Source of the DNA: a candidate division FCPU426 bacterium
Lineage (GTDB): Bacteria; Oederibacteriota; JAAXVQ01; JAUVAV01
Assembly: GCA_040756875.1 (NCBI GenBank)
Contig: JBFLYH010000002.1
Span: 981,246 to 1,045,245, forward strand
Length of the DNA stretch: 64,000 nucleotides
Direction: 5' to 3'
Shown: one piece after another, positions 15,459-16,308 of the stretch
Layout: each line of letters starts with the position of its first letter
How positions within the stretch are numbered: position 1 is the first letter of the stretch
The notes under the pieces: model-generated
The model's input: only the letters and a program-made list of their open reading frames with translations
The model's database searches: none
What the model was told of the DNA's origin: nothing
Program-made: the position numbers and the translations under genes

Positions 15459-15998
15459 ATGCGCCAATGGATCGTCCTGGGCACGGCGGCGCTGCTGCTG
15501 GCCGGCGGCTGCGCCAGCGTGCCCGAAATCAAAGGAAAGGAAGCGAAGACCGAAACCATGACCGAAAGCACACCTGCCACCGAAGCTGTTATTCAGACCA
15601 ACAAAGGCGAGATCGTGTTCAAGTTCTACCCTGAAGACGCACCCAAGACCGTGGAGAATTTCGTCAAGCTGGCGCGCAAGGGCTTTTACGACGGGCTGAC
15701 TTTCCACCGCGTGGTGCCGAACTTCGTCATCCAGGGCGGAGATCCCAAGGGCGACGGCACCGGCGGGCCCGGTTACACCGTTCCCGCGGAATTCAACAGC
15801 CGCTCGCACCTGACGGGCACGGTGGCCATGGCGCGGGCCTTGGATCCCAACTCCGCGGGCAGCCAGTTCTACATCTGCCTCGCCCGTCAGCCCGGCCTCG
15901 ACGGACAGTACACGGTCTTCGGCCAGGTCACCTCGGGCATGGACGTGGTGCAATCGATCCGCGTGGGCGACAAAATGCTCAAGGTCACGGTGCGCTGA
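15459..15998 (+). CDS. peptidyl-prolyl cis-trans isomerase, cyclophilin type (probable lipoprotein)
   Basis: Start at ATG 15459 after RBS AGGAGG; signal peptide with lipobox-like LAGGC; cyclophilin motifs FHRVVPNFVIQGGD. Confidence 0.8.
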   Translation: MRQWIVLGTAALLLAGGCASVPEIKGKEAKTETMTESTPATEAVIQTNKGEIVFKFYPEDAPKTVENFVKLARKGFYDGLTFHRVVPNFVIQGGDPKGDGTGGPGYTVPAEFNSRSHLTGTVAMARALDPNSAGSQFYICLARQPGLDGQYTVFGQVTSGMDVVQSIRVGDKMLKVTVR

Positions 15999-16055
15999 AG
16001 CGGATAAAAAAATTTGCGGAACGCAAGAAAACATTTCTCCTTTGACGCGCGAATG

Positions 16056-16064
16056 TGCTATAAA
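16056..16064 (+). promoter_or_regulatory. extended -10-like element TGcTATAAA upstream of the micro-ORF
   Basis: TG at 16056-16057 then TATAAA 16059-16064; no convincing -35. Confidence 0.3.
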
Positions 16065-16102
16065 AGAATTAACACATGCACGTCGAAAAAGGAGGTGACA
16101 GC

Positions 16103-16153
16103 ATGGCGGTGAAGAAGGCGAAGAAAAAGGCCACGAAGAAGAAAAAGAAATAA
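16103..16153 (+). CDS. 16-codon lysine-rich micro-ORF (MAVKKAKKKATKKKKK)
   Basis: Strong SD AAAGGAGGTGA 5-8 nt upstream of ATG 16103; stop TAA 16151-16153; followed by an intrinsic terminator. Confidence 0.3.
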   Translation: MAVKKAKKKATKKKKK

Positions 16154-16194
16154 GTTGATTCGATTTCGTGTGCATTGATACGCTTTGGTTTGCG

Positions 16195-16229
16195 AACCGG
16201 AGGGGGCCCTGCTCCCTCCGGTTTTTTAT
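16195..16229 (+). terminator. Rho-independent terminator (GC stem + T6)
   Basis: CCGGAGGGGG / CCCTCCGG stem then TTTTTTATT at 16221-16229. Confidence 0.7.
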
Positions 16230-16279
16230 TCATCTCCTTTAATCTCCCGCGTCGGCGTTTTTAGCGGCGTCCTTAACGC

Positions 16280-16308
16280 TTGACATTCATGCGGGTCAGG
16301 CGTATCTT
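16280..16308 (+). promoter_or_regulatory. sigma70-like promoter TTGACA-17-TATCTT of the pyr operon
   Basis: -35 at 16280-16285, 17-nt spacer, -10 at 16303-16308. Confidence 0.55.

Follow-up and report, generated by a model that had tools for sequence, protein, structure and literature searches.

A conserved micro-gene for a 16-residue oligolysine peptide beside a cyclophilin gene, its product likelier to be a small polycation that binds nucleic acids than a device for stalling ribosomes

The window analysed here is a 64,000-nt stretch of DNA from an uncultured candidate division FCPU426 bacterium (Oederibacteriota; contig JBFLYH010000002.1, positions 981,246 to 1,045,245 of the forward strand). 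It holds a compact transcription unit of about 160 nt, which we call the mini-gene, between a gene for a cyclophilin-type peptidyl-prolyl isomerase (PPIase; gene ppi) and the leader of pyrR. Genes for malate dehydrogenase, class-I fumarate hydratase and aconitase lie upstream, followed by the cyclophilin gene (15459-15998), which is the immediate upstream neighbour of the mini-gene. Downstream are a PyrR-binding leader, pyrR, pyrB and pyrC. A first-pass annotation of this DNA had placed the unit between a cluster of tricarboxylic acid (TCA) cycle genes and the pyr promoter. The unit is compact and does lie ahead of that promoter, but the gene adjoining it upstream is the cyclophilin gene and not one of the TCA genes.

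The mini-gene consists of four elements on the plus strand, located as the first-pass annotation had claimed. The promoter box TGCTATAAA (16056-16064) is part of a longer extended -10 element of the form TGnTATAAA, TGTGCTATAAA (16054-16064), with one exact match in the window. An 11-nt Shine-Dalgarno (SD) sequence, AAAGGAGGTGA, spans 16088-16098, with 7 nt between GGAGG and the ATG. Its 9-mer core, AAGGAGGTG, occurs a single time in the 64 kb, a weak statistic when taken alone, as at least one match was found in 29 of 100 shuffles too. The open reading frame (ORF) runs from ATG to TAA at 16103-16153; the codons after the ATG are GCG GTG AAG AAG GCG AAG AAA AAG GCC ACG AAG AAG AAA AAG AAA TAA. 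The product, MAVKKAKKKATKKKKK, has 10 lysines among its 16 residues (62.5% Lys), a mass of 1.84 kDa, an isoelectric point of 10.95 and a net charge of about +10. A spacer in the 3' untranslated region (UTR; 16154-16193) is kept within the window's own clade and has the Thr-codon region of the ORF as its predicted pairing partner. The unit ends in an intrinsic terminator (16194-16231), whose hairpin (16194-16224) has a 14-bp stem, 9 of its 14 pairs being G-C, and a 3-nt loop, and is followed by a T-run.

Two further candidate signals were rejected. TTGACG at 16043, which had been noted as a -35-like element, is too near TATAAA for the spacing of a -35 and is not conserved in the relative L001; the conserved promoter element is the extended -10. 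An upstream ATG at 16076, taken from a mechanical ORF list, would yield a 25-aa version of the peptide. This extension overlaps the SD sequence and its extra residues vary between close lineages, and the start is therefore placed at 16103. In a six-frame scan of the whole window, the ORF is the sole SD-preceded one with at least 50% Lys plus Arg. Because it is the only such ORF and is also conserved in relatives, it is not a product of chance. The only other near-match to TGTGYTATAAA in the window, TGTGTTATATA (60818-60828, plus strand), carries one mismatch.

Relatives were gathered with a PyrR search of species-representative genomes and then a PPIase search for further contigs. Wherever an examined relative has the cyclophilin gene in this neighbourhood, a lysine-rich ORF comes immediately after it. 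The syntenic relatives are L001, L005, L007-L009 and L201-L226, with PPIase identities to the window of 62-89%. In the 11 contigs at 87-89% (L001, L201-L210), the peptide is identical, at 16 aa. At 85% (L211-L218), it is MAVKKAKKKATKKKK, a 15-aa form with one Lys codon fewer than the window and with K8T in one contig. Other lineages encode 31 aa (L219; PPIase 72%), 21 aa (L220, L221/L222; 69-70%), 44 aa (L223/L224; 71%) and 26 aa (MPVKKAAKKVAKKVVKKAVKKATKKK in L225/L226; 73%). The peptides of L005, L007 and L008 (62-63%) measure 28, 36 and 27 aa and end in KKATKKK, and that of L009 (62-72%, with two adjacent ppi matches) measures 55 aa. Lengths of 15, 16, 21, 26, 27, 28, 31, 36, 44 and 55 aa are thus found at one syntenic position, a 3-4-fold variation among orthologues that arose via in-frame gain or loss of repeats. 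The repeat units in these relatives are (KKVA)n, (KKKVA)n, (VVKK)n and (KKKAT)n, of which the window peptide has only about two degenerate units left (KKAKK-KAT-KKKKK).

In all 12 syntenic units that were aligned, TGnTATAAA is invariant and the distance from SD to ATG is identical; the SD itself is AAGGAGG, with GGGGG in one relative. Common to the 12 units are also an M[A/V/P][V/A]KK start, a lysine run at the end with the stop immediately after it, and a terminator hairpin, whereas elsewhere the 5' and 3' UTRs diverge from clade to clade. Although the terminator stems are not alike in sequence, they still pair: among nine relatives, both partners have changed at 12 of 20 pairs. Conservation of promoter box, SD spacing, start, end and terminator bears out the original description of a self-contained mini transcription unit for a polylysine peptide. 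L003, L004 and L006 have neither ppi upstream of pyrR nor a mini-ORF there. The gene downstream of the mini-gene is pyrR in most relatives and recQ in L225/L226; the mini-gene thus goes along with ppi and does not belong to pyr.

Several patterns speak for a translated sequence. Between the window and the lineage at 89% PPIase identity, the ORF has three differences, all of them AAA/AAG exchanges, and no amino-acid change. The rate of synonymous Lys-codon change in the mini-ORF (3 of 10) is the same as in the flanking ppi (2-3 of 8), while the ppi protein differs by 11-15% of its residues over the same comparison. The check that the first-pass annotation had proposed, synonymous against non-synonymous change in relatives, thus comes out on the side of a reading frame that has been kept. 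Across 21 family ORFs, GC content at third codon positions tracks that of the contig (rho 0.71, p 3e-4), and that at first and second positions does not. Family codons are almost all AAA or AAG plus GCN, GTN, ACN and CCN. The other all-purine codons (AGR, GAR and GGR, for Arg, Glu and Gly) are nearly absent and the third positions of GCN, GTN and ACN vary freely, which argues for selection on amino acids, with the caveat that one antisense frame has its third positions in common with the sense frame. We rejected an antisense poly-Phe ORF (minus strand, 16069-16233): neither its start nor its frame nor an SD is conserved in the relatives, two of which have no start at all. These comparisons indicate that the mini-gene is under purifying selection as a coding sequence, and it is very probably a genuine, translated and independently transcribed micro-gene. 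Of the options raised at first, the comparative data, with synonymous-only changes in close relatives and conserved translation signals, favour the micro-protein.

The RNA or the act of translation could be what matters, as a dual-function small RNA whose (AAR)n tract binds Hfq or another protein, or as an ORF that senses the status of lysyl-tRNA or ribosomes, with the peptide incidental. The transcript of about 160 nt, with its post-stop hairpin, A/U-rich spacer and U-tailed terminator, would suit such a role, and the window's own transcript gives a better fold than its shuffled versions (z -3.4). Members of the window clade have a conserved 3' UTR, and the Lys codons match the A-R-N triplets bound by the distal face of Hfq, giving a possible (ARN)n-type site. 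However, a search with Rfam 15 over 16054-16231 at E<=10 gave only chance-level microRNA-like and flavivirus-hairpin-like matches and thus no family. Outside the terminator, just a 4-bp stem with weak covariation is held in common, and the UTRs diverge between clades. The near absence of purine triplets other than AAR and the free third positions of GCN, GTN and ACN also speak against it, as do the invariant SD, ATG and stop. Nor is there a consistently linked downstream gene to serve as target, this being pyrR mostly and recQ in L225/L226. We consider an RNA-level function with an incidental peptide unlikely. Across clades, it is the translational signals and the peptide that are conserved and not the RNA sequence. 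The suggestion of a small RNA with a decoy ORF stands insofar as some 3'-UTR structure is conserved, but the missing Rfam match and the conservation of translation signals and peptide instead tell against the decoy.

Some structural details of the transcript can be recorded here. A short hairpin lies 5-25 nt past the stop of the mini-ORF in L219, L220, L222, L223, L008, L225 and L009. It takes the forms CACC-N4-GGTG, CCACC/GGTGG, CACCGGC/GCCGGTG or GCATC/GATGC, and beyond it come an A/U-rich spacer and then the terminator. The window clade differs: there, CACGAAG of the Thr-codon region has UUUCGUG in the 3' UTR as its predicted partner, a long-range 5'/3' pairing seen in three sequences only, which are too similar to covary. 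As for the traits of a type I toxin, the peptide lacks a hydrophobic segment, and neither an ORF nor signals are conserved on the antisense strand.

Long lysine runs raise the question of whether ribosomes would read them faithfully. According to work reportedly done by Koutmou et al. in 2015, lysine runs on long poly(A) tracts slow ribosomes or make them slide, with transcriptional slippage as well. A-runs reach 5 nt in the window ORF and at most 8 nt in any family member. We permuted AAA and AAG 5000 times among the 350 Lys codons of 20 lineage representatives. A-runs of at least 8 nt were observed twice against 13.6 expected, and runs of at least 9 nt not once against 8.4 expected; none of the 5000 permutations matched this scarcity. 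Uninterrupted A-runs of about 9-11 nt, the mark of slippery or stalling ORFs, are found in no family member. Slippery poly(A) is avoided within the lysine runs. The depletion therefore marks the opposite of a programmed sliding or stalling element and is a further sign that accurate decoding matters, and the stalling or slipping ORF suggested in the first-pass annotation is not supported. For the oligolysine peptide, a role as a small polycation that binds nucleic acids is likelier than one in stalling ribosomes.

The same result bears on a proposed leader role, in which ribosomes that stall or slide on the ORF, as on a lysine-rich leader peptide or slippery sequence, would attenuate or tune the pyr operon downstream. 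The position of the mini-ORF upstream of pyrR in most relatives would agree with this, as would the behaviour that lysine runs are said to show on long poly(A). In addition to the short A-runs of the window and their depletion family-wide, several features of the locus oppose it. The mini-gene terminator is strong, with compensatory stem changes, and is followed by a separate pyr promoter (TTGACA-17-TATCTT, 16280-16308) and by a PyrR-binding attenuator directly upstream of pyrR (RF00515, 16321-16426; 43.3 bits, below the gathering score of 54, though at the position expected for it). The stop codon of the mini-ORF lies 40 nt ahead of the terminator stem. Lys codons are unrelated to pyrimidine control, and in L225/L226 the downstream gene is recQ. 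A role in pyr attenuation was rejected on these grounds, and we regard a pyr leader as highly improbable. Because of the conserved strong terminator, the separate promoter and attenuator, the 40-nt gap and a variable spacer, the mini-gene is insulated from the pyr operon.

That spacer, which separates the terminator of the mini-gene from the pyr promoter (the equivalent of window positions 16232-16280), varies among strains. In L201-L210/L001, two alternative sequences occur 60-400 nt past the mini-ORF stop and diverge directly behind the perfect palindrome aggggcgttcaattgaacgcccct. Of the 10 independent assemblies fetched for this region, at least 7 stop within about 140-190 nt past the ORF stop, and one more stops earlier. 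The spacer with its palindrome may be a small inserted repeat or an element like the repetitive extragenic palindromes (REP). The PyrR binding loop and the attenuator terminator are conserved in L001, L005, L007 and L008. On the other side of the mini-gene, the N-terminus of the cyclophilin (window 15459-15520), MRQWIVLGTAALLLAGGCAS, has a lipoprotein-type signal with a lipobox-like LAGGC, and the PPIase is therefore probably exported or lipid-anchored. Its start in the mechanical ORF list, a TTG, is 10 codons too early. Right after the cyclophilin stop is a small hairpin, TTGCGGAACGCAA (16014-16026). Its A-run is on the 5' side, which gives it a terminator score on the minus strand only, where no gene is evident.

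Lysine-repeat ORFs of this kind are not confined to the syntenic relatives. We scanned metagenomes with a degenerate pattern made up of an SD, M[A/V]VKK and two further Lys codons. At least 120 stretches matched and 80 were listed. Among the 80 matches listed, 20 are stand-alone Lys-repeat ORFs of 11-56 aa, on contigs of 32-63% GC and in unrelated contexts, with no ppi or pyrR nearby; a hairpin and T-run follow most of them. The peptide of L123, MAVKKAKKKATKKKATKKKVTKKKATKKKATKKKKK, equals the window peptide plus extra KKKAT units. An 11-codon ORF, MAVKKAKKKKR, occurs with synonymous differences in L103 (1589-1624), L105 (662-697) and L128 (5285-5320). The other 60 of the 80 listed include AKKA-type H1-like proteins of 92-185 aa with the same N-terminus, and also N-termini of uS11 and small CxxC proteins with lysine-rich N-tails. 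The ORFs of 11-56 aa and the AKKA proteins of 92-185 aa, alike at the N-terminus, form a continuum of sizes, the MAVKK start of these matches being imposed by the search pattern. The mini-ORFs look like the short end of this continuum of lysine-repeat proteins.

The scan yielded a few further observations. The 3' UTR of the MAVKKAKKKKR ORF contains an anti-SD-like sequence, uuuccuccuuucc, that could pair with the SD of the same ORF. In L103 and L105, a LemA-family gene lies downstream of this ORF on the opposite strand. A recurrent family of about 57-70 aa combines a lysine-rich MAVKK... N-tail with a Cys-rich core (..Y.C.VCGL.V.VD..CGC....IICC..PM..K.R) and is found at L089, L092, L119, L121, L124, L125, L131-L133, L148, L149, L153, L154 and L157.

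Genomic context in metagenomes also offers some support to the main rival explanation, a ribosome-bound micro-protein that fills a pocket in rRNA as an analogue of bS22, eL41, bTHX or bL37. On the strand of the ORF, a look-alike lies directly downstream of rsfS, the gene for the ribosomal silencing factor, in L146 (12565-13215), L123 (645-1376) and L140 (2-580), with promoter-like TTGAC elements upstream of these mini-ORFs. In L085 and in L087/L150, a mini-ORF is convergent with prmC. These adjacencies come from very few independent lineages, the contexts of the look-alikes being otherwise varied. The window peptide is also, like Borrelia bS22, very small, 62% basic and unannotated, and its expression signals are consensus-like, with an SD core found once in the window. 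A pocket in rRNA, however, should fix both length and sequence, and the syntenic orthologues range over 15-55 aa; bS22 is almost invariant across Borrelia groups. The peptide uses lysine only and does not have the mixed Lys/Arg and hydrophobic positions of bS22. Searches of NCBIfam, Pfam and the PDB at E<=10 gave no match to bS22, bL37 or THX. A ribosomal pocket-filler is thus improbable in our view.

Database searches placed the family nowhere. No significant match was found in Pfam, NCBIfam or the PDB, and the members of 25-55 aa matched neither Hc1 nor HC2 of Pfam at E<=10, although the composition-bias filters of HMMER make such profile negatives weak or uninformative. A homologous-protein search with the 55-aa relative returned 0 matches, subject to low-complexity bias. 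Ten family peptides of 22-56 aa were looked up in a collection of 15 billion proteins, and none was present as an exact sequence. We found no description of a stand-alone lysine-repeat gene of 11-56 aa with its own promoter and terminator in Pfam, NCBIfam, Rfam, the PDB or the literature searched. Lysine-repeat H1-like proteins are known in bacteria; new here is the stand-alone version of 11-56 residues, conserved across lineages.

What might such a peptide do? We propose that the mini-gene would be independently transcribed and efficiently translated into the 16-residue oligolysine peptide; the consensus-like strength of its signals suggests high expression. The 16-mer would be the shortest form of a lineage-conserved group of Lys/Ala/Val/Thr repeat micro-proteins (15-55 aa). 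It may bind polyanions such as DNA, rRNA or mRNA, ribosomes, and possibly polyphosphate, without sequence specificity. In doing so, it would neutralise or condense them, much as the lysine-repeat tails of histone H1, Hc2, BpH1, AlgP and HupB/HbhA do. The peptide would amount to a genetically encoded, polyamine-like counter-ion and a minimal stand-alone version of histone-H1/Hc2-like lysine repeats. The 3-4-fold length variation at one syntenic locus fits binding driven by charge and not by a shaped pocket. An expressed oligolysine micro-gene of a repeat family, its product a polyanion-binding polycation, is to our mind the best overall explanation, with about an even chance of being correct. 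The polyanion-binding mechanism taken separately, which is argued from composition and analogy, we put a little short of even.

Several points weigh against this explanation. All characterised H1-like proteins are far longer than the 16-mer, and the Pfam searches gave no link to Hc1 or HC2. Low complexity means that homology with the non-syntenic ORFs is not demonstrable, and their likeness may reflect convergence. The adjacency to rsfS (three cases) and prmC (two) hints at the ribosome, and not the nucleoid, as the target. The conserved structure in parts of the 3' UTR leaves room for a possible role of the RNA. A different use of the positive charge would be as an exported cationic antimicrobial or membrane-active peptide. 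Longer relatives, such as the one with (VVKK)n in L007, do have the periodicity of amphipathic cationic helices. The window peptide, though, has almost no hydrophobic residues and no signal peptide, there are no neighbouring genes for transport, immunity or maturation, and the contexts consist of housekeeping genes; we judge an antimicrobial very unlikely.

If the mini-gene is translated, its product would rank among the shortest conserved bacterial proteins with their own promoter, ribosome-binding site and terminator. A broader and more tentative proposal is that several uncultured lineages carry oligolysine micro-genes of 11-56 aa whose products act as abundant 'protein polyamines', balancing charge on ribosomes, nucleoid or polyphosphate, with the dose tuned by repeats and a codon order that guards against slippage. 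Should that be true, the 16-mer would be among the shortest 'protein polyamines', and the 11-residue ORFs of L103, L105 and L128 would be shorter still. The family offers a simple system in which to study the part that polycations besides polyamines and Mg2+ play in managing the charge of RNA and DNA, and its lysine runs show selection against poly(A) slippage. In proteomics with trypsin, such lysine-rich peptides would probably be destroyed. In practice, a pattern search, rather than a gene caller, is the way to find mini-ORFs of this type.

Comparison with known systems helps to place the family. The ribosomal peptides bS22, eL41, bTHX and bL37 resemble it in size (under 35 aa), in a basic content above 55% and in being regularly overlooked by annotation. 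They differ in their fixed length, near-invariant sequence and mixture of Lys and Arg, whereas the mini-family varies 3-4-fold in length. Another small basic peptide is ScvA of Coxiella, a DNA-binding peptide of about 30 aa in small-cell variants and a proposed nucleoid condenser. ScvA is Arg/Gln-rich, limited to one lineage and developmentally regulated, and to our knowledge shows no variation in repeat number. Borrelia bS22 itself, with 61% Lys plus Arg, was found only through cryo-electron microscopy density and has a single substitution across Borrelia groups (10.1101/2023.04.16.537070).

In composition, the family is the same as the AKKA/PAKK tails of mycobacterial HupB and HbhA and of Pseudomonas AlgP. 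The AKKA repeats of HupB and HbhA have been proposed as DNA-binding motifs, and HbhA binds DNA without sequence preference, which its authors link to the C-terminal region with the AKKA repeats (PMC10665949). AlgP is described as associating with polyphosphate granules (PMC9239181). In HupB, HbhA and AlgP the tails sit on folded domains, but here the tail is the whole protein, with a promoter and terminator of its own.

Chlamydial Hc2 (HctB) and Bordetella BpH1 offer a further parallel; their lysine-rich tetramer and pentamer repeats bind DNA and RNA and vary in copy number (PMC2848022). Hc2 has 165-237 aa with non-repeat flanks, and the H1-like class as a whole spans about 100-240 aa. By contrast, the mini-family has 15-55 aa (11-56 in the wider class) and consists of repeat only, with no non-repeat domain, the window peptide being just 16 aa. 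Its basic residues are lysine alone, unlike the Lys plus Arg of Hc2 and BpH1, and the window version is essentially without repeats. What the mini-family has in common with both is the tandem unit of 4-5 residues, with two or three basic residues plus Ala, Val, Thr or Pro, the in-frame change of repeat number between lineages and the even spacing of positive charges.
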